Below are positions 3,812 to 51,476 of a DNA stretch of 64,000 nucleotides, in pieces; within the stretch, counting starts at the first letter, position 1; each line of letters begins with the position of its first letter. Source of the DNA: Pseudomonadales bacterium (GTDB taxonomy: Bacteria; Pseudomonadota; Gammaproteobacteria; Pseudomonadales; Azotimanducaceae); assembly GCA_046582115.1 (NCBI GenBank), contig JAYGFA010000047.1, positions 207 to 64,206 of the forward strand. The letters are read 5' to 3'. A program made the translations under genes and the position numbers. Under the pieces are notes generated by a model. The model had not been told where the DNA came from. It worked only from the letters and a program-made list of their open reading frames with translations, and ran no database searches.

Positions 3812-5824
3812 ATGACGACCCGTTGGGGCATTCTTGCGACGGGGCGCATTGCCAAGACTCTGGCCGACGCGGTGTTTGCCTCGGAGACCTGGGAGCTTGT
3901 TGCAGTCGGCAGCCGAACCCTCGCTAAAGCGGATGAGTTTGCGAGCAACTATGAAGGACTAACAGCCCATGGGTCGTACCAGGACCTCATCGACGATCCT
4001 GATGTCGATGCTCTTTACGTCGCGACGCCCCACCCACAACACGCTGAATGGACCATCAAAGCGCTCGAAGCCGGGAAAGCTGTCCTCTGCGAAAAGCCCA
4101 TGGCCGTGAATCACCCCCAGGTCATGGCGATGGTACAAAAGGCTTCGGACACTCAAACCTTTCTTATGGAAGCGTTTATGTACCGGACGCATCCGCAAAC
4201 GCAGCGGCTAATCGATCTCTTACGCGATGGAGCCATCGGCGAAATTCGGCACATTCAAGCGAGCTTTGGTTTTCACGCACCGTTCAACGCCGAGCATCGG
4301 CTGTTCGCAAACGACCTGGCGGGTGGCGGCATTATGGACGTCGGCTGTTATCCGGTATCCACGGCGCGCCTCATCGTGGGCGACGAACCCGAGCGCGTCA
4401 GTGCTCACGGGCGGTTGGGCGAAACCCAGACCGACGCGTTTGCCTCCGCCCTCCTGCACTTTCCGAGTGGCGTCGCGGCACACGTCGTAACCGGGGTGCA
4501 ATTGGGACTCGACAACTCGGTCAGCGTCTTTGGTAGTTCAGGACGCATCCACATCGACCATCCCTGGCTCTGCCCAACCGAATGGTCCTTTGATCTGATT
4601 CGGGGGGGCGAAAGGCAAACCGTTGCCGGGGATGCAAAGCCCGCGTATGTCCACGAAGTCGACGAAGTAGACCGATGTCTCTCGTTGAACCTCACCCAAT
4701 CCAAGACGATGGATTGGCGCGATAGTCTCGCGAACGCACGCGTTCTCGACCAATGGCGAGACGCCATTGGTCTTGAGTTCGACCAAGAAAAACCCGAGCG
4801 CCAAGTGATGCCGGTTCACGGCCGATCGCTGCAAACCGACTCATCAGACATGCGCTACGGCCAGGTTGATGGCATCGACAAACCGGTCTCTCGCCTTGTC
4901 ATGGGCTGCGATAATCAGCCCAACGCCGCCCACGCTTTCGTGATGTTCGACGACTTCTTTGAAGCGGGCGGCAACGTGTTTGACACCGCGTTTATCTACG
5001 GCGGTGGCGCTATGGAACGTTTATTGGGTCATTGGATAATCAATCGCGGACTTCGAGATGAGGTCGTCATCATTGGTAAGGGTGCCCACACACCATTCAA
5101 TTACCCCGAACACGTGCCGACGCAATTAACCGAGAGCCTTGAGCGTCTGCAATCAGACCACCTCGACCTCTATTTCCTGCATCGAGACAACCCGGACGTG
5201 GAGGTTGGCGAGTGGATCGAGGCACTGAACCGTGAACGCGATGTGGGCCGTTTTCGTGCCTTCGGCGCGTCAAACTGGTCGCTGGCCCGGATTCAGGCAG
5301 CCAACGACTACGCCGCCCAACATGGCCTGCAGGGATTTGTCGCGGTCTCCAACAACTTTAGTCTCGCCCAAATGATCGATCCGGTCTGGCCTGGCTGCAT
5401 TGCGGCTAGTGACGACGCGTTTGCAAGGTATCTCGAATCCACTCAGCTCGCCTTGTTTCCGTGGTCGTCGCAAGCGCGTGGTTTTTTTACGGGGCGAGCC
5501 GACACAGTTCGCCAGCAGTTGGAATCTGACATCGATACCAGCTTTGGTAATCAGCCCACTGACGCCGAGATGCAGCGTTGTTGGTTTTCTGATAACAACT
5601 GGAGACGTCGCGACAGGGCCAAGGAACTTGCCAGCGTGCACGGCGTCGAGCCGATTAATATTGCCCTGGCCTACGTTCTTAAGCAGCCGTTCCCGTGCTT
5701 TCCACTCATCGGACCGCGACAACTGTCCGAAACCAGAAGCTCGCTCGGTGCGTTATCGGTCAAACTGAGCGACGACGAACGCCGGTGGCTTAACCTTGAG
5801 TCGACCAAGCGTCCCGCTTCCTGA
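3812..5824 (+). CDS. fusion protein: N-terminal Gfo/Idh/MocA NAD(P) oxidoreductase plus C-terminal aldo/keto reductase
   Basis: N-terminus WGILATGRIA plus EKPMAVN (GFO_IDH_MocA). From about residue 347 (internal ATG 4850) it is AKR-like: VMGCDN..., FDTAFIYGGG, LDLYFLHRD. One uninterrupted 670-aa frame. Confidence 0.8.
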   Translation: MTTRWGILATGRIAKTLADAVFASETWELVAVGSRTLAKADEFASNYEGLTAHGSYQDLIDDPDVDALYVATPHPQHAEWTIKALEAGKAVLCEKPMAVNHPQVMAMVQKASDTQTFLMEAFMYRTHPQTQRLIDLLRDGAIGEIRHIQASFGFHAPFNAEHRLFANDLAGGGIMDVGCYPVSTARLIVGDEPERVSAHGRLGETQTDAFASALLHFPSGVAAHVVTGVQLGLDNSVSVFGSSGRIHIDHPWLCPTEWSFDLIRGGERQTVAGDAKPAYVHEVDEVDRCLSLNLTQSKTMDWRDSLANARVLDQWRDAIGLEFDQEKPERQVMPVHGRSLQTDSSDMRYGQVDGIDKPVSRLVMGCDNQPNAAHAFVMFDDFFEAGGNVFDTAFIYGGGAMERLLGHWIINRGLRDEVVIIGKGAHTPFNYPEHVPTQLTESLERLQSDHLDLYFLHRDNPDVEVGEWIEALNRERDVGRFRAFGASNWSLARIQAANDYAAQHGLQGFVAVSNNFSLAQMIDPVWPGCIAASDDAFARYLESTQLALFPWSSQARGFFTGRADTVRQQLESDIDTSFGNQPTDAEMQRCWFSDNNWRRRDRAKELASVHGVEPINIALAYVLKQPFPCFPLIGPRQLSETRSSLGALSVKLSDDERRWLNLESTKRPAS

Positions 5825-6374
5825 CCACGATCGTTCCCGCGAGGCGGTCATGCAGACAACGCCGCGACGCACCAAAAATGAACGCAGCGTCAATCAGAGG
5901 CACCCACAGCAGAGTCCCTGGGAACGGCCAGGGAATCCCTTCCAATGTGACCTGCCCTAGCTCCGGGATAGGCAGCGAAACAACGCTACCCGGGATGAAC
6001 AGCCAGGTCGCCAAGTTCGCTAACAAAATGAAAACGACGTACCGGTACAGAACTAACTTCTCGGGGGTAGGACGGTGGCCGCTTTCAGAGTCCACAATCT
6101 GCAATCCCAATATCCACTTGCCCACGGTCTGGCCCCGAGTGAACAAGGGAATGCCATTGATCACCAAAAAAATGGCCGTAAACCAGAGCGTCCATTCGAC
6201 AACGACTGGAAGTCCGTTCGGAAGGAAGAAAATAAAGTCGGTGTAGTTGATATCGCCTCGAAAGGCGAAAAAAACGAACGCCACGATCAACACCAACGTA
6301 TCGAACAACGAAGCAAAGAACCGCCGCACACGTCCGGCCGGGTTAACTGTCTCTACCCCAAAACGTGATGACAC
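5790..6374 (-). CDS. RDD family membrane protein
   Basis: RRFFASLFDTLVLIV start, 3-4 hydrophobic helices, and a C-terminal CLHDRLAGTIVV motif typical of the RDD domain. The 3' end overlaps the convergent gene by 35 nt. Confidence 0.75.
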   Translation of the reverse strand: MSSRFGVETVNPAGRVRRFFASLFDTLVLIVAFVFFAFRGDINYTDFIFFLPNGLPVVVEWTLWFTAIFLVINGIPLFTRGQTVGKWILGLQIVDSESGHRPTPEKLVLYRYVVFILLANLATWLFIPGSVVSLPIPELGQVTLEGIPWPFPGTLLWVPLIDAAFIFGASRRCLHDRLAGTIVVRKRDAWSTQG

Positions 6375-6540
6375 GACAGCTACCCTCTCCCCACGCTAAT
6401 CGCACGCATAATTCGATCCGTAAGAGGGAACATTATCGAATTACGCACGCACGCGACAGGCTACGAATTGGAAACCACCTTCGTGCCCGCTAAATTGTCG
6501 TCGTTCTCACTCATGATCTTTCCCCTCAGTTACGATTGCG

Positions 6541-7239
6541 TCAGCGTCCATCGCTCGCAAGTTCAATAGGATCGCCGAACGGTTCGATACATCGTGGTCC
6601 GTTGTTACGCGAATTACTGACAAATGTCGAGACGGGGACCACCGAAAGATCGAACGCCAGTCGGGGTGTCATGAGGTCGGCCAACACCGTCGCGTCTTGA
6701 TCACGCACCATCCACTCGATGGCGCCCGGCTTCGACAGCATCACGGGTTGGCGGCGATGCACAAATTCAAGCTGCGGCGAGGCCGCCGTCGTCACGACGG
6801 TGAAACTCTCGACGATCTCGTCGCTCGTTTTGCTCTGCCAACGATCCCAGAGACTCGCCAACAACATTGCCGAGCCGTCACGTGGTCGGATGTAGTGCGG
6901 GAGCTTGCGGTCGTTCCGCATCGACCATTCGTAAAACCCGGACACCGGCAAAACACAGCGGCGGCGTTCAAACGGGCCCTTGAACGCGTTCGAGCGCGTT
7001 AACGTTTCACTCTTGGCATTGAACATTGCGTAGCGGTTGGACGGCCCGTTCGACCAATGGGGAACCAACCACCACCGCGCGTTCGCGGCCTCGTATGTGC
7101 CTTCGCTATCGGGTCGTATGATCCACGCGTGTGCTGTCGGCGAGGTATTGAAATTATCGTCTCCAGGAAAGGGCTCATTCACCAATTCCATGAAGATCTT
7201 GGTCAGCGGATCACTCGTGACGTTGAACCGTCCGCACAT
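6541..7239 (-). CDS. yedK: SOS response-associated peptidase (SRAP / YedK, abasic-site processing protein)
   Basis: Starts MCGRF, with the catalytic Cys2. Family-typical FNARSETL-like FNAKSETL and FYEW motifs. Confidence 0.9.
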   Translation of the reverse strand: MCGRFNVTSDPLTKIFMELVNEPFPGDDNFNTSPTAHAWIIRPDSEGTYEAANARWWLVPHWSNGPSNRYAMFNAKSETLTRSNAFKGPFERRRCVLPVSGFYEWSMRNDRKLPHYIRPRDGSAMLLASLWDRWQSKTSDEIVESFTVVTTAASPQLEFVHRRQPVMLSKPGAIEWMVRDQDATVLADLMTPRLAFDLSVVPVSTFVSNSRNNGPRCIEPFGDPIELASDGR

Positions 7240-43748: not shown

Positions 43749-44531
43749 ATGAGCGTCATCGCTACGGATCACACGAACGTTGACTGGAGTCAGATTGTCG
43801 CCGATCTGAATCGGTTCCTTCGGCTGAGAACCACTCCCATCGGCATGAAAATGTTCGAAAACAAATCAGATATGGAAGCAATCCCGAAAATACGCCGACC
43901 CTCGGACGTCCACACCACAGATCAGATCGTCGGGCAGGCGTGTCGTAACGGTTGGACCGTTGGCATCACCGCCGAAGACCTCGTGGGTGCGCAGTGTCAG
44001 GTGGTCATTGGCCTCGCGCCTCGTAGCGAAGAGTGGCTGTCCGGAAGCAATATGGCCGGCGTTTGGTACGAAACAAAGGAAGAATCTTCCAGACACCAGC
44101 GCGCGATGGATGTTGCTCCGTACGGGGCGTTCGAAGCCATGGCCGTTAGTCCACTCGCAAGTGGTCGCCTATCTCCTCCAGATATTTGCCTTATCTACGC
44201 CACACCCGCGCAAATGATCTTGTTCATTAACGGGTTGCAGTGGGCCGGCTACAAGAAACTGGAGTGGGGATGTGTAGGCGAAAGCGCCTGTGCCGACAGT
44301 TGGGGCCGCGCACTCGCAACGGGAGAACCGAGTCTTTCGATCCCCTGTTTTGCGGAACGACGCTACGGGGGAGTGATGGAGGACGAATTGCTGATGGCTA
44401 TTCCACCACATTTCTTGCCCAAAGTGATCGACGGACTTGACCACTTGTCTCGCAATGGCTTGCGCTACCCCATCCCTCAGTACGGTATCAACAATGATGT
44501 TAGAGCTGGGATGAACGTCAGCTATCAGTGA
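43749..44531 (+). CDS. DUF169-like protein
   Basis: 260 aa. N-terminal LRLRTTPIGMKMF resembles the DUF169 start. Recalled from memory only. Confidence 0.4.
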   Translation: MSVIATDHTNVDWSQIVADLNRFLRLRTTPIGMKMFENKSDMEAIPKIRRPSDVHTTDQIVGQACRNGWTVGITAEDLVGAQCQVVIGLAPRSEEWLSGSNMAGVWYETKEESSRHQRAMDVAPYGAFEAMAVSPLASGRLSPPDICLIYATPAQMILFINGLQWAGYKKLEWGCVGESACADSWGRALATGEPSLSIPCFAERRYGGVMEDELLMAIPPHFLPKVIDGLDHLSRNGLRYPIPQYGINNDVRAGMNVSYQ

Positions 44532-45504: not shown

Positions 45505-46773
45505 TCATACCGTGCGCTGATATACGCGCCAAAAACGTCGGTGCAGGTCGAGTGTATGGACGCGCATGATCTCGACGCCACGACTCGCTAATTTTGCCGA
45601 CACAGCTAATGTTTCAGGGTCGCGTTCGCTCGGCGGGACCTTCGTCATTGACTCAAGATAAGACTTTCGACTATGGCCAAACAATAAGCGACAGTCGAGT
45701 TCCATCAATTCTCGTGCTCGACCTATGATTTCAAGAGACTGCGTCTGAGTCTTACCAAAACCAATGCCCGGATCGATGATCACACGTTCGCGCGCTATGC
45801 CCGCTCTTTCAAGTATTTCAAGGCGTTCGCCAAACCAAATGCGAAGAACAGCTAGCGGATCGCAATCGAGTGGCAGCACGTTATTGGGATCGGCGGGCAC
45901 CGACAAACTATGCATTAGTACGAGATCGCATCGACTATCCGCGAGAACCTCAATCATTTCTCGATCAGCGAGACCACTGACATCGTTAACGATCGAAGCA
46001 CCGGCCTCGATCGCCCGAGCGGCGGTCGCTGGCGATCTTGTGTCGATGCTTATTTTCGGTCGAAGCAGCCGCCCCGAAAAATGTTGATCGAGATGCTCCA
46101 GCACGGGTCCGACCCGGCGCCACTCCGTTTCGGGATCAACGTCGACGGCACCAGGGCGTGTCGATTCGCCACCAATATCGATGTAATTGCCGTCGAGCAA
46201 TTCGGGTTGCACCGCGGTTGGCTCATCGTCCTTTAACCAGCGTCCACCATCTGAAAACGAGTCGGGCGTAACGTTGATCACGCCCATCCACGCGGGCAGC
46301 GATTCATCGATCCGCCGCTTGAGCTGCAGCACGGTTTCCTTCGTACCAGGGAGACGGCGGGATGGAACGATTTCTGCCAAAGGGGCGAGCACGAAGGCGC
46401 GTTCCCTCACGCCAACGTGAGGAATAACGAGGTCGGGCGTGGTGATTGTCTCGTCATCGTACGCCAGCAAATCAACATCGATAATTCTGGGAGCCCATCG
46501 CTCTGCGTCGGCCCGGCCGAGGCGTCTCTCGATTGCTTGAGTTGCCGCCAACAGGTCATGGGGCTTCAAGGACGTTGAAAGTTCTACAGCTACGTTCAGG
46601 AAGGGTTTGTCCCACGTCGGCGGTGAACCTGGCGCAAGTAGCGCTTCACTCTCGTACAACGTAGACCATCGAAGCAGTGACGTTCCTGATAGCCCCGCCA
46701 ACGCTTCCATGCCTTTTTCCATATTGACGCATCGGTCTCCAAGGTTAGACCCGAGACCAAGCAACACGGTCAT
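45505..46773 (-). CDS. folKP: bifunctional HPPK (FolK) / dihydropteroate synthase (FolP)
   Basis: N-terminal LGLGSNLGD, ERWAPRIIDVDLL and IPHVGVRERAFVL match canonical HPPK. The C-terminal part has GVINVTPDSFSDGG and the rest of DHPS. Start ATG 46773 overlaps the upstream stop (ATGA). Confidence 0.9.
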   Translation of the reverse strand: MTVLLGLGSNLGDRCVNMEKGMEALAGLSGTSLLRWSTLYESEALLAPGSPPTWDKPFLNVAVELSTSLKPHDLLAATQAIERRLGRADAERWAPRIIDVDLLAYDDETITTPDLVIPHVGVRERAFVLAPLAEIVPSRRLPGTKETVLQLKRRIDESLPAWMGVINVTPDSFSDGGRWLKDDEPTAVQPELLDGNYIDIGGESTRPGAVDVDPETEWRRVGPVLEHLDQHFSGRLLRPKISIDTRSPATAARAIEAGASIVNDVSGLADREMIEVLADSRCDLVLMHSLSVPADPNNVLPLDCDPLAVLRIWFGERLEILERAGIARERVIIDPGIGFGKTQTQSLEIIGRARELMELDCRLLFGHSRKSYLESMTKVPPSERDPETLAVSAKLASRGVEIMRVHTLDLHRRFWRVYQRTV

Positions 46774-47648
46774 CGACGCGTTCGCATGATGAAGGCCGTT
46801 CCTCCACGGAGATCTGGGATGGGGGGGTGGCATTTACGTACTTCAAGCGTTAGTTCAGAACCAGATTCCGTCAACATCTCGCTCAATTCGTCTAAGCAAC
46901 ATCCGGCAAGATGTTCAATCGTCCGAAACGCACGGGAACCGACGAGCGCGATAACGTGTCGGCACATAACGCCGTAGTCTAGGGTTCCATCGATCTCATC
47001 GGTACTGCACGCCTCGGGCACGCTCGGAAACGTGACGTTAATGGAGATCGACACTTCCTGCGGATTCTCGCGTTCACTATCCGGTACGCCAAGACGGACG
47101 TCCACGCGGAGATCGTCTACCCGTAATTCTGGTCGTACTTGCGTTTGCGTTGAAACGGAGCTACACGCTACCGGGTGAACCGTGAGCGGTACCTCTTCGC
47201 GCTCCAGCCGAGACCAAAGCTCAGCAAACGTTCTACCAACCACGGGATGAACCCGTTCCGGTTCCAATTCAGACAAAGGCTTCAAGTAGTAAGCAGCCGT
47301 GACAGTTTCCGGGCGCGGTAAAACCAGGCGGTCATTCTCAATAACCACGTCCCCGAACAATAGTAAATCAAGATCGATCGTTTTCGATGCCAATCGCGGC
47401 GCCGCCAAGTCTTTGCCACCCCGGATTTCGATTTCATGGAGGACCCCAAGCACTTCCGACAACTGGATCATCGTTCGAAAACGAACCACCAGATTGACGA
47501 AATCATCACCCTTAAAACCGACGGCTGGGTTTCGATATGCCGTGGATAGCTCGATTGCCCCAAATCGCTCGCGCAAATCCGTGAGGGCTGCGCCGATACG
47601 CACATCCGGATCGACGTTGCTGCCAATCCCGACAAAAACATCAGTCAT
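46770..47648 (-). CDS. fusion of a divergent HPPK-like domain with a dihydroneopterin aldolase (FolB/FolX-like) domain
   Basis: N-terminus VGIGSNVD...TIDLDLLLFG is HPPK-like. C-terminus LRVDVRLGVPDSERENPQ...LDYG...FRTIEHLA...EVRKCHP is FolB-like. Start at internal ATG 47648. Confidence 0.75.
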   Translation of the reverse strand: MTDVFVGIGSNVDPDVRIGAALTDLRERFGAIELSTAYRNPAVGFKGDDFVNLVVRFRTMIQLSEVLGVLHEIEIRGGKDLAAPRLASKTIDLDLLLFGDVVIENDRLVLPRPETVTAAYYLKPLSELEPERVHPVVGRTFAELWSRLEREEVPLTVHPVACSSVSTQTQVRPELRVDDLRVDVRLGVPDSERENPQEVSISINVTFPSVPEACSTDEIDGTLDYGVMCRHVIALVGSRAFRTIEHLAGCCLDELSEMLTESGSELTLEVRKCHPPIPDLRGGTAFIMRTRR

Positions 47649-47670: not shown

Positions 47671-48714
47671 TCAGCCAGCGGCGACCATGAAGTCACGATC
47701 TGCCAAGGCGTCAAATTGCGCCAGCACACGCCTGCCTTCACCGTGCTTGAGGATGCGTTCTTTAATAACGTTGTATTGTTGTTCGGCGGCGATACGAGGC
47801 TGCTGTTCCGTCGCCCAAGCAATGAGTTGTTCCCAAAACGGGTCCAGCACGTTGCTTCCTAATGCGGTCCCTCCATCTTCCGTTTTGAAGTGCAAGGACC
47901 GCAATTCACCAATGTATAGGCGTAGAGATTCGACATGGATTCGTTCGTCCGTCCGAATCCTCTCGACAATTTCCGCCGCCAACTCTGCTTCCGCACGTTT
48001 ATCGGTAAACAAATCATCGGTACGCAATGTTTCCTGTGTATTGGCGAATCCAATTTCGGCGCGAAATTCGATCACCAACAAATTCATCAAAAAACTGAGT
48101 GCCATTTCGTACGGCTGCGGAATTTGCGGCATCCACCGTCTGCCTGCCTCTGCACGACTTATACCTTGAGGCGGTTCGATGTCGGGGAATGCACCAGGAC
48201 CAAAAACCAAATCGCGCGTAACAAACCACATTACGTCGTGACCTCCGATGCCCTTTTCAGGTTGACCACCTTCGTCAATTCCGTGGGCTTCAAGAAGACC
48301 CGTCTTTAGGTGGCCGATCGCCATTTGGCCGATGTCTTCAACCACTAAATCTTGCATGTCCGGGAATGGCATGTCGGCAATCATCCGTCCACGCCCTTCG
48401 ATTTTTCCGGTAATCGTCAAGGTATTCCAGAAGGTTTGTCCAAGGCCTTCACGGATCAACAAGCGCTGTTGCTCCGAATTCGGTACCCGAGGCCCGCTCA
48501 AAAGAGACGCGTCAGCATCTAAAAGATCACCACCGCGATCACGCAGAGCGTCGGCCCAATTGGCGATCGCCACACCCCGTATTTTTGAGCGCGGTGGAAT
48601 ATAATCGCCGTCGGAACTGAATCCGCCATGTAATACCTGGCTATCGACGACATGCGCCGAAGCAAAATCGTGGTCCGTCATTAACTCGTCACGCGAGAAT
48701 AGAAGTTTCGCCAT
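47671..48714 (-). CDS. hypothetical protein (347 aa), first gene of the pterin operon
   Basis: Long ORF with SD AGGAG 7 nt upstream of ATG 48714 and protein-like composition. No family recognised. Helical C-terminal half contains D-E-R-I-H. Confidence 0.7.
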   Translation of the reverse strand: MAKLLFSRDELMTDHDFASAHVVDSQVLHGGFSSDGDYIPPRSKIRGVAIANWADALRDRGGDLLDADASLLSGPRVPNSEQQRLLIREGLGQTFWNTLTITGKIEGRGRMIADMPFPDMQDLVVEDIGQMAIGHLKTGLLEAHGIDEGGQPEKGIGGHDVMWFVTRDLVFGPGAFPDIEPPQGISRAEAGRRWMPQIPQPYEMALSFLMNLLVIEFRAEIGFANTQETLRTDDLFTDKRAEAELAAEIVERIRTDERIHVESLRLYIGELRSLHFKTEDGGTALGSNVLDPFWEQLIAWATEQQPRIAAEQQYNVIKERILKHGEGRRVLAQFDALADRDFMVAAG

Positions 48715-48801
48715 GACGGCACTCCTGGTAATCCAAGCTCTGCGATTCTAACCCAAGTTAACGGTCGCGGTAGGTGCCCCGACATGGTGGGTGCCCGGAG
48801 C

Positions 48802-50160
48802 TCAGTCGGTGGCGAAAGACTGCACCAGGTCAACCATAAAAGCGGTGCCCTTTGTCAACGTTTCTAACGAAATGCGCTCGTCATTCCCATGGACACCACC
48901 ACCTTCATTTTCTGTCAATGCCGTCGGCGAGAACCCGTAACTTTGGATCCCTACATCGCGAAAAAAGTGGCTGTCCGTGAATCCCGTAGAAACCCCTGGA
49001 ATTGCCGTCGCTCCCGGAAACCACTCGCTGGTCTTGGTCTCAATTAAACGAAACAGCGACGTATCCATGGAACTGCTTGTAGGTGTAAAGCTCATAATGC
49101 GTTCAATACTCACATCTCGATCATTCACAATGGTGGTCACTTCGGCAATAAATTCGTCCACGTCTTGATCAGGTACCAATCGACAATCGAGTTCAAGTAC
49201 TGCCTCGGGCGGAACCACATTAATTTTCTTACTACCCTGTAGCGTTGTCAGCGAGCAGGTATTACGTAACAGTGCGTGATATACAGGCGCGGTCATTTGT
49301 AACGTCCGCATGAATGCCGTATCAGTTACGTGAGCGCCTACGTCTTCAAACGCGCTTTTGAGTTCGGGTCGCTGAAATTGGGCAACCCCCCGAAATAAGT
49401 TAGCGACCGGCTCAATGACCCGTGCTTCGAAGCGCGTGTCTGCGAGACGTTGTCCCGCGCGCAAAATGCGCGTAATCGCCGTCTGTCCTAGTGGAACGGA
49501 ACCATGACCCGGCCGACCCCTCGCCGTTAAACGCAGCCAAACGGGTACTTTTTGAGTGACTTCAACGAAAAAAACGGTGTTGGTACTAAATCGTCGGCCG
49601 CCGCCGCCCTCATTAAGTACATAGCCAACGCCGTCAAAGATCTCAGAACGTTTTTCTAACAACCAACCAGCACCCAAGAAACCGCCGGCTTCTCCATCCG
49701 CCGTTGCTACATAGAGAACATCTCGATTCAATTTACTGCCCGACGCGTGCAGAGCCAAAAATGCCTGCAGCTGCATGATTCCGAGTGCCTTCATGTCGAG
49801 CGCACCTCGACCGTAAAGGTATCCTTCCTTGGTAATCCCCCCATAAGGGTCGACGTTCCAGTGCGAAGCATTGGCCGGAACCACATCAATGTGATGTAAG
49901 AGGACCAATCCAGGCTTTCCGTTGCCTCGCAGTCGCGCCCATAAGTTTCCACGTCCCGGCACGGATTCTGCCGTATCGTATGGAATGCCCGCCTGCTTCA
50001 GTATCCCGCCGAGAAATTCGACGCCGCGCGTTTCGTTGCCCGGCGGGTTGGTCGTATCGACTCTTATGTATGCCGCCAATCTCTCCGGCGCGAGCTCGAC
50101 GAACGGATCTCCCGAGCTCGAAACAAAGACCAATAAGACCAGAACAATCAAAGGGCGCAA
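48802..50160 (-). CDS. secreted M20/M25/M40 family metallohydrolase homolog
   Basis: Signal peptide RPLIVLVLLVFVSSS, HHIDVVP, GRGALDMK, ATADGEAGG (in place of xDEExG), VLNEGGG. TTG start with GGAG upstream. Confidence 0.75.
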   Translation of the reverse strand: MRPLIVLVLLVFVSSSGDPFVELAPERLAAYIRVDTTNPPGNETRGVEFLGGILKQAGIPYDTAESVPGRGNLWARLRGNGKPGLVLLHHIDVVPANASHWNVDPYGGITKEGYLYGRGALDMKALGIMQLQAFLALHASGSKLNRDVLYVATADGEAGGFLGAGWLLEKRSEIFDGVGYVLNEGGGGRRFSTNTVFFVEVTQKVPVWLRLTARGRPGHGSVPLGQTAITRILRAGQRLADTRFEARVIEPVANLFRGVAQFQRPELKSAFEDVGAHVTDTAFMRTLQMTAPVYHALLRNTCSLTTLQGSKKINVVPPEAVLELDCRLVPDQDVDEFIAEVTTIVNDRDVSIERIMSFTPTSSSMDTSLFRLIETKTSEWFPGATAIPGVSTGFTDSHFFRDVGIQSYGFSPTALTENEGGGVHGNDERISLETLTKGTAFMVDLVQSFATD

Positions 50161-50231
50161 ATGCGAACTCCGGTTTGCAGTTTAGTAATCGCGCTGCCAC
50201 CATGAATGGCCACCGGGGAGGGACCATACCG

Positions 50232-51476
50232 ATGAAATTTGGGATTTTCTACGAACACCAATTGCCACGTGACTGGGACATCGAAAGTGAACACCGGCTT
50301 TTAAAACAGTCCCTTGCTCAGATCGAACTCGCTGACCAACTGGGTTTCGACTACGCCTGGCAAGTTGAACATCATTTTCTCGAAGAATACTCGCACTCAT
50401 CAGCACCGGAGGTTTTCCTCGCGGCCGCTAGCCAGCGTACCAAGAACATCCGTCTCGGGCATGGGATCGTACAGCTGACCACCAATCATCCAGCCCGGGT
50501 CGCGGAGAAAGTGGCAACGCTCGACCTCGTTTCCGATGGCCGCGTTGAGTTAGGTTTAGGTGAAGGCGCTTCTGTCACCGAATTGCACCCTTTCAATCTG
50601 CGTTTTCGCGATAAGCGTGAGGTGTGGGAAGACGCCGTCCGCTGCACCCTGCCCATGTTCTGGAACCACGCCTGGGAATACGAAGGCAAGTTCTTCAAGT
50701 TCCCTTTACGAGCCGTAGTTCCGAAACCGCTTCAAAAACCGCACCCGCCATTATGGGTGGCTTGCTCGCAGCTCGACACCATTAAGTATTCCGCACACAG
50801 GGGTATGGGTTCACTGTGCTTCAAGTTCGTCAGTCTCGATGCGGCTAAAGCTTGGGTTCACGCCTACTACAACACGTTTATACATAACCTCGAAAAACTC
50901 GCCGACTATCAGACCAACCCAAACATCGCTGTCGTCGCGGGGTTCATGTGTGCCGAGACCGATGAAAAGGCATGGGAAAAAGCGGACGGATGGACATTTT
51001 TTCAGTTTGCTTTGCAGCTTTATAACAAAGAAGGCCCTTTCGAACCTGGATCCATGAATTTTTGGGAGCGTTACCAAGAATGGAAGAAAACGCCAGAAGG
51101 TCAAAAACGAACCGGTAGCGAACTCATTGGGTCTCCGGACACCATCCGCGAACGTCTGTTGGAGCTTGAAAAATCGCACGTGGATCAAGTGATTCTCCTC
51201 AACCAAGCCGGCAAGAATACACACGCCGACATCTGCTCGAGCCTCGAATTATTCGCCCGCGAAGTGATGCCCGAATTTAAGGAACGGCATGGCGAACAAG
51301 AAGAATGGAAACAAGCGGTACTTGCGGGTGACATCGAGCTCGAGGAAATCGACACCGATCCTTTCAACTTTGCCGCGCGGTTGAAGCCGAACCAGCCTTC
51401 AACAAGCGATGCCAAGGACATGATTTCTGGGGTTACCGGCCGACCGGAAGCCGAGTCGGTTCAGAGAAGTAATTGA
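50232..51476 (+). CDS. LLM class (luciferase-like) flavin-dependent oxidoreductase
   Basis: MKFGIFYEHQLPR..., FDYAWQVEHHF. Start ATG 50232 is preceded by GGGGAGGG. Confidence 0.85.
   Translation: MKFGIFYEHQLPRDWDIESEHRLLKQSLAQIELADQLGFDYAWQVEHHFLEEYSHSSAPEVFLAAASQRTKNIRLGHGIVQLTTNHPARVAEKVATLDLVSDGRVELGLGEGASVTELHPFNLRFRDKREVWEDAVRCTLPMFWNHAWEYEGKFFKFPLRAVVPKPLQKPHPPLWVACSQLDTIKYSAHRGMGSLCFKFVSLDAAKAWVHAYYNTFIHNLEKLADYQTNPNIAVVAGFMCAETDEKAWEKADGWTFFQFALQLYNKEGPFEPGSMNFWERYQEWKKTPEGQKRTGSELIGSPDTIRERLLELEKSHVDQVILLNQAGKNTHADICSSLELFAREVMPEFKERHGEQEEWKQAVLAGDIELEEIDTDPFNFAARLKPNQPSTSDAKDMISGVTGRPEAESVQRSN

Follow-up and report, generated by a model that had tools for sequence, protein, structure and literature searches.

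A large, unnamed protein family with a putative ferritin/R2-like di-metal-carboxylate centre and its lineage-specific place at the head of a folate operon

We investigated a gene of the Pseudomonadales, here called ORF347, within a 64,000-nucleotide stretch of DNA (the window, meaning the whole stretch that was analysed). ORF347 occupies 47671..48714 on the minus strand and encodes an acidic (pI 4.9), cysteine-free, cytosolic protein of 347 aa that belongs to an unnamed family and, as judged from its sequence, is probably a di-metal-carboxylate protein. Its start region on the minus strand (CCAGGAGTGCCGTCATG) reads as an AGGAG Shine-Dalgarno sequence (48722..48726), a 7-nt spacer and an ATG at 48714, and we consider this start codon to be correct because the N-terminus aligns with those of the orthologues. 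The stop codon is followed after 22 nt by the ATG (47648) of a 292-aa HPPK-like and FolB fusion (PF01288 + PF02152; 46770..47648, minus strand), the first gene of a two-gene pterin cassette, and next by an HPPK and DHPS (FolK-FolP) fusion (PF01288 + PF00809; TIGR01496, 244 bits; 45505..46833, minus strand), which is the sole DHPS of the genome. The open reading frame, its AGGAG, the 7-nt spacer and the 22 nt that separate it from the HPPK-like/FolB gene agree in coordinates and sequence with an earlier note on this DNA. No terminator-like site was detected in the 22-nt gap, all seven flagged sites lying elsewhere at about the chance rate, and ORF347 is probably co-transcribed with the fol genes. 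Upstream, an M20-family peptidase homologue (48802..50160) is encoded on the same strand across an 87-nt gap, and a luciferase-like (LLM) flavin monooxygenase (50229..51476, plus strand) is divergent from this M20-ORF347-fol block. On the other side, an acyltransferase gene and the fol genes separate ORF347 from a DUF169 gene (43749..44531, plus strand), whose convergent position next to ORF347 orthologues is conserved in other genera.

The earlier note could assign the protein to no family, and our searches bear this out: the single ORF347 sequence gave 0 matches in Pfam-A, NCBIfam and the PDB (phmmer), and its homologues are all named 'hypothetical protein'. A search of 5.8 billion proteins recovered at least 1,590 clusters (90% identity) at E<=0.001, typically 62-67% identical to ORF347 over its full length; no Pfam domain was recorded for these clusters, 'hypothetical protein' was their sole name, and the source names of ten diverse cluster representatives were likewise 'hypothetical' or missing. 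A 50%-identity representative library yielded 374 members of the family, and the best 120 matches of an alignment profile among the 5.8 billion proteins were close relatives. Using an 11-sequence alignment as the query, we located 510 loci with a relative of ORF347 in GTDB species genomes, mostly from uncultured Pseudomonadales including Ca. Azotimanducaceae. Within the window's own GTDB family, 108 of 201 genomes encode a member, frequently alongside a second, paralogous copy (31-36% identity), although the genomes surveyed are MAGs and possibly incomplete; two or three divergent paralogues are found per genome. With orthologues at 58-92% identity in hundreds of genomes, far beyond chance, ORF347 is a real gene, and the family to which it belongs is large, strongly conserved, new and unnamed. 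Orthologues at 58-63% identity were also present in Acidimicrobiia (L095, L096, L103 and L107-L112) and in a Burkholderiaceae MAG (L100), and their occurrence in Actinomycetota and a betaproteobacterial MAG suggests, from the sequences, either inter-phylum transfer or extreme conservation. A further 61% orthologue, typical of uncultured Pseudomonadales, lies on a contig titled 'MAG: Klebsiella pneumoniae' (L087), a MAG that is probably mislabelled or contaminated. The family thus extends through hundreds of species of Pseudomonadales and Acidimicrobiia without Pfam, NCBIfam or PDB annotation, and a cofactor and a reaction for it would annotate thousands of 'hypothetical proteins'.

We examined how far the linkage to folate genes extends by comparing the window's neighbour genes, by tblastn, with 80 species-level loci and their flanks of about 8 kb. 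Both fol genes were found near ORF347 in 6 of the 80, and in each of these the ORF347 orthologue was at least 88% identical and belonged to the window's genus. All members of this genus with enough contig have ORF347 22 nt upstream of the two fol fusions (folK'B-folKP) on the same strand; a further species of the same genus, with an orthologue 64% identical (L023), has no adjoining fol genes. In the same comparison 41 of 80 loci had DUF169 in their flanks, encoded on the strand opposite to ORF347; an enoyl-CoA hydratase was present in 26 and a methyltransferase in 21. In other genera the orthologue stands directly against DUF169, tail-to-tail and with no fol genes; in the window's genus the fol genes, joined in the window by an acyltransferase gene, therefore lie between ORF347 and its ancestral neighbour. 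DUF169 serves here as a synteny anchor because it is near-universal in the GTDB family, with matches in 168 of 201 genomes irrespective of ORF347, and we rejected it as a functional partner. Its protein in the window is the product of a near-core gene, 74-96% identical among the matches listed and without an NCBIfam match.

The cassette itself (45505-47648) is compact, with two genes and two HPPK domains. In its first gene, the HPPK half shares about 45-54% identity with gammaproteobacterial FolK proteins that stand alone. HPPK-FolB is a rare architecture (about 25 clusters). The same pair of HPPK-FolB and HPPK-DHPS fusions was found at 44-51% identity in other lineages (L150, 6001-8372; L151, 6001-8150), with no ORF347 homologue within 6 kb of either cassette. 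The base composition of the fol cassette carries no foreign signature. The position of ORF347 at the head of a folate operon is confined to one genus and stems from a lineage-specific insertion. The two-gene pterin cassette, a self-contained unit, came to lie between ORF347 and DUF169, the convergent gene that was ancestrally next to it, and transcription from ORF347 now appears to continue into the fol genes. The earlier note had suggested a folate role through guilt by association with the fol genes, an argument that does not extend to the family at large: the association is limited to 6 of 80 loci, all in the window's genus, and the cassette occurs elsewhere without ORF347. Because the linkage is absent outside the genus, the lack of co-occurrence with fol genes in other genomes, which that note had named as speaking against its own proposal, is largely what we found.

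Next, we turned to the protein. In an alignment of 33 family members with identities down to 27%, the invariant residues were H29, G30, G31, G36, Y38, P41, R42, A49, W53, P78, L86, H135, D147, H159, W163, R167, H260 and E270, and at least 90% conservation was found for E106, H144, E148, E203, E216, D256 and E257, among others. The most conserved feature is the ExxH helix. Its D-E-R-I-H motif, to which the earlier note had drawn attention, was located at residues 256-260 (codons 47935..47949, minus strand), in a long helix (237-272), by alignment, profile and model alike; among the 33 diverse homologues H260 never varies, and conservation of D256 and E257 is at least 90%. An AlphaFold2 model built from the alignment (pLDDT 94.9, pTM 0.92) comprises an N-terminal beta-hairpin followed by helices 93-114, 132-149, 159-171, 200-230, 237-272 and 286-322, and the fold is confidently predicted to be all-helical with four long helices. 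The structure search that the earlier note had recommended was run with this model in Foldseek against the PDB, and it returned nothing at E<=0.001, no match below E=0.8 and no TM above 0.31. The top, non-significant matches were to ribonucleotide reductase R2 chains (E=1.2-1.8, TM 0.28-0.31), TenA and the HDO protein PolF (both E>=0.8, TM<=0.25). A confidently predicted fold is thus shared by a whole family that has no solved neighbour of significance.

A candidate metal site emerged from profile comparisons. Matches of the alignment profile to PDB sequences were confined to the helix AAEIVxRIRxDExxHVxYL and in every case fell on the ExxH ligand helix of the partner. The partners were bacterioferritin at E=0.018, a di-iron protein designed de novo at E=0.023 and R2 at E=0.87. 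When the 33 homologues were scanned one by one against Pfam, Ferritin_2 was matched once (E=0.0013) and Ribonuc_red_sm once (E=0.21), with otherwise stray weak matches. An hhalign comparison with an R2 alignment built from relatives was non-significant (P=0.042) and colinear, placing E106 on the first-ligand Asp, H135 two residues off the ExxH His, E216 one residue off the third-ligand Glu, and D256-E257-x-x-H260 exactly on the DExxH of R2. The corresponding comparison with PF14518 (CADD-type HDO) proteins from relatives gave P=0.47, and a search of the order for PF13668 members, for use in a comparison profile, found none. The canonical first ExxH of the ferritin-like motif is absent from the alignment, and a comparison of the N- and C-terminal halves of ORF347 for internal duplication yielded nothing beyond a pairing of D147-E148 with D256-E257. 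No link to any metalloprotein family reached statistical significance, the best values being E=0.018 and P=0.042. The earlier note had likened the motif to those of ferritin-like or heme-oxygenase-like di-iron enzymes; the former half of this likeness finds a weak echo in the ExxH-helix matches to bacterioferritin, R2 and the designed protein, but the latter does not (P=0.47). From these weak matches, a ferritin/R2-like di-metal-carboxylate site is probably likelier than a heme-oxygenase-like one of the CADD type.

Our preferred reading, to which we give a probability of about 0.55, is that ORF347 belongs to a large family of soluble oxidases with a ferritin/R2-like di-metal-carboxylate centre. 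The two metal ions, which ORF347 probably binds, would be liganded by E106 (helix 93-114), E148 and H159 (around helix 140-171), E216 (200-230), and E257 and H260 (237-272), with H135, H144, D147 and D256 in the second sphere; E148 and H159, which flank a helix break, may take the place of the canonical first ExxH. The chemistry would probably be that of an oxidase, which would use O2 to oxidise or hydroxylate a small metabolite, and the family might extend the di-metal oxygenases by a new branch.

We compared ORF347 with known systems. Like R2 and bacterioferritin, ORF347 is predicted to be all-helical with long antiparallel helices, and its conserved Glu on one helix with D-E-x-x-H on the next matches their second ligand pair; its mid-helix E106 is in addition colinear with the first ligand of R2. 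In contrast to both, however, it has an 85-residue N-terminal extension that includes the beta-hairpin, and in place of their first ExxH a broken helix with H135, H144, D147-E148 and then H159. Neither of them matches ORF347 significantly in sequence or fold, and the radical-site context of R2 is lacking. AurF and CmlI are ferritin-like arylamine N-oxygenases; AurF has an extra His ligand pattern, HxxxExxH, and pABA, an aromatic amine, as a substrate. ORF347 resembles them in size (about 330-350 aa) and in being probably a ferritin-like di-metal protein, but PF11583 was matched by 0 of 33 family members at E<=10 and HxxxExxH is absent, position 253 being Ile rather than His.

CADD (CT610) and NePabS (NE1434) are self-sacrificing HDO pABA synthases: in a heme-oxygenase-like fold they bear three His and three carboxylates as ligands, together with a Tyr that is sacrificed and a Lys that donates the amine (PMC9522330, PMC11965152). 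CADD is a protein of about 230 aa with seven helices in this fold (PMC9522330, PMC11965152), and its sacrificial Tyr and donor Lys are Tyr27 and Lys152 (PMC11965152). ORF347 would share with them a probable di-metal, O2-activating site, and it has an invariant Tyr (Tyr38) and, in the window's genus, a clustering with folK and folP in a genome without pabB. It differs in having no similarity to PF14518 or HDO proteins: none of 33 members matched PF14518 at E<=10, and the hhalign value of P=0.47 accords with the earlier note, which had claimed no homology to CADD. The ligands of CADD and NePabS are spaced E-x(6-9)-H ... E ... H-x3-D-x2-H, whereas ORF347 has D256-E257-x2-H260 with Ile/Arg instead of His four positions ahead, and no E-x(6-9)-H pair. 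Moreover, the alignment has no Lys that reaches 90% conservation. The type is further marked by clustering with folate genes where pabABC is missing; the fol linkage of ORF347 is limited to one genus.

We also examined which other genes recur beside the family. Family members in two Acidimicrobiia (L103, L112), in the 49% clade (L028) and in the 31% clade (L034) have an LLM gene as their immediate downstream neighbour in the same orientation. At a further locus (L120, 6001-9913), 4-nt overlaps couple the translation of the ORF347 homologue, an LLM and, after it, a lipase-like alpha/beta hydrolase. The LLMs of L028, L034 and L120 are 45-48% identical to that of the window (L120: 47.6%), and those of the Acidimicrobiia 32-34%. 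Because LLMs recur directly beside family members in unrelated lineages, we propose that the oxidation would probably proceed alongside flavoenzymes. Many family members have no flavoenzyme neighbour, and contexts are heterogeneous. A strict co-occurrence of LLM and ORF347 was considered and rejected, as many genomes without ORF347 also encode the LLM orthologue. Clustering of neighbourhood ORFs, which left out 29 of 80 loci, included spurious ORFs in high-GC DNA and covered the top clusters only, placed a nitroreductase-like cluster beside 5 loci. A second association involves a paralogue at 33-35% identity. In the window's own genome (L031, G000 contig C83) this second copy (4152-5276) overlaps by 4 nt a same-strand ABC1/UbiB-type kinase gene (5273-6589) downstream of it, and the pair is found again in unrelated metagenome contigs (L115/L116; 7001-8095 and 8092-9402). 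This suggests that paralogue and kinase form a conserved module of two genes, with a possible link to quinones or lipids.

The principal alternative is that ORF347, at least within the clade of orthologues at 57% identity or more, is a functional analogue of CADD and NePabS, acting as a non-canonical pABA synthase or as another enzyme that supplies or modifies an aryl-amine or pterin substrate, which we regard as unlikely. Its appeal lies in the window's genus, where ORF347 is the only unexplained member of a folate operon. Each of nine genomes of this genus (G000-G008) has a single TrpE/PabB-family match of about 234-281 bits, below the PabB cut-off of 328 bits (TrpE in relatives scores up to 287), and neither a PF14518 (CADD-like) protein nor AbgT was found in the genus, which retains one DHPS per genome. 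A whole genus of streamlined marine bacteria therefore keeps DHPS with no recognisable pABA source, and for this reason a folate-related role there is conceivable. The M20 neighbour was rejected as a pABA-Glu or folate hydrolase of the AbgB/CPG2 type, since it belongs to a generic M20 subfamily and AbgT is absent. Across the 201 genomes of the GTDB family, about half of which lack PabB, 47 of 66 carriers of an orthologue (>=57% identity) are PabB-negative, compared with 58 of 135 non-carriers (naive Fisher OR 0.30, p=1.7e-4, uncorrected for phylogeny). Likewise, none of ten carriers in Acidimicrobiia and Burkholderiaceae has a match above the PabB cut-off, three of them having an ambiguous second paralogue, and the invariant Tyr38 together with a probable O2-activating metal site would also suit such an enzyme. 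Yet 19 of the 66 carriers and 77 of the 135 non-carriers are PabB-positive, as are 26 of 34 carriers in the 38-49% clade; 50 of 101 genomes without any family member also lack PabB, so loss of PabB must be common and solved otherwise. By genus the contrast is weaker, orthologue carriers being all PabB-negative in 7, all positive in 3 and mixed in 6. Orthologues are thus enriched in PabB-negative genomes when phylogeny is uncorrected, with no complementarity, and the co-occurrence with missing pabABC that the earlier note had suggested examining is seen in the genus, and 19 carriers do have PabB. The 74 of 80 orthologue loci with no fol genes nearby, the fol cassettes without ORF347, the lack of a conserved Lys as amine donor and of any likeness to HDO proteins also speak against a pABA synthase, and the recurrent LLM and ABC1 partners suggest another role. 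A pABA or pterin role within the genus, at a low probability, is possible and is not supported as the general function of the family. The stronger form of the idea, in which the orthologue clade would be a third kind of enzyme that makes pABA (or a pABA precursor), with a ferritin-like di-metal centre and no structural relation to the other kinds, seems to us quite unlikely; if true, it would explain folate synthesis in PabB-less and CADD-less marine Pseudomonadales and in some Acidimicrobiia that keep DHPS.

The preferred reading of a di-metal oxidase must also be weighed against two explanations that part with either its substrate or its metal. ORF347 could be a ferritin-like protein with no metabolic substrate that works, for example, as a ferroxidase, scavenges peroxide or serves in iron or oxidative stress (compare DUF892/YciF and rubrerythrin-like proteins), and both its best sequence similarity, to the ferroxidase helix of bacterioferritin, and its usually monocistronic gene in heterogeneous contexts are consistent with this. 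We nevertheless find such a role distinctly improbable for a 347-aa protein with a conserved N-terminal beta-hairpin and HGGF...GxYxxPR block, whose many invariant non-ligand residues (W53, W163, R42, R167) would be more usual in a substrate pocket; the presence of two or three divergent paralogues in each genome and the translational coupling to LLM and hydrolase genes at L120 point the same way. Alternatively, the DExxH helix may be a chance resemblance and ORF347 no metalloprotein at all, having instead another activity, or a role in binding or regulation. This is an unlikely explanation in our view, even though every link to metal proteins is statistically weak, no structural neighbour of significance was found, no two-helix duplication is detectable within the protein and the first ExxH is missing. 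Against it, six Glu and His residues, placed mid-helix on four long helices, show little or no variation among sequences down to 27% identity, and the alignment with R2 sets these six colinear with the R2 ligands.
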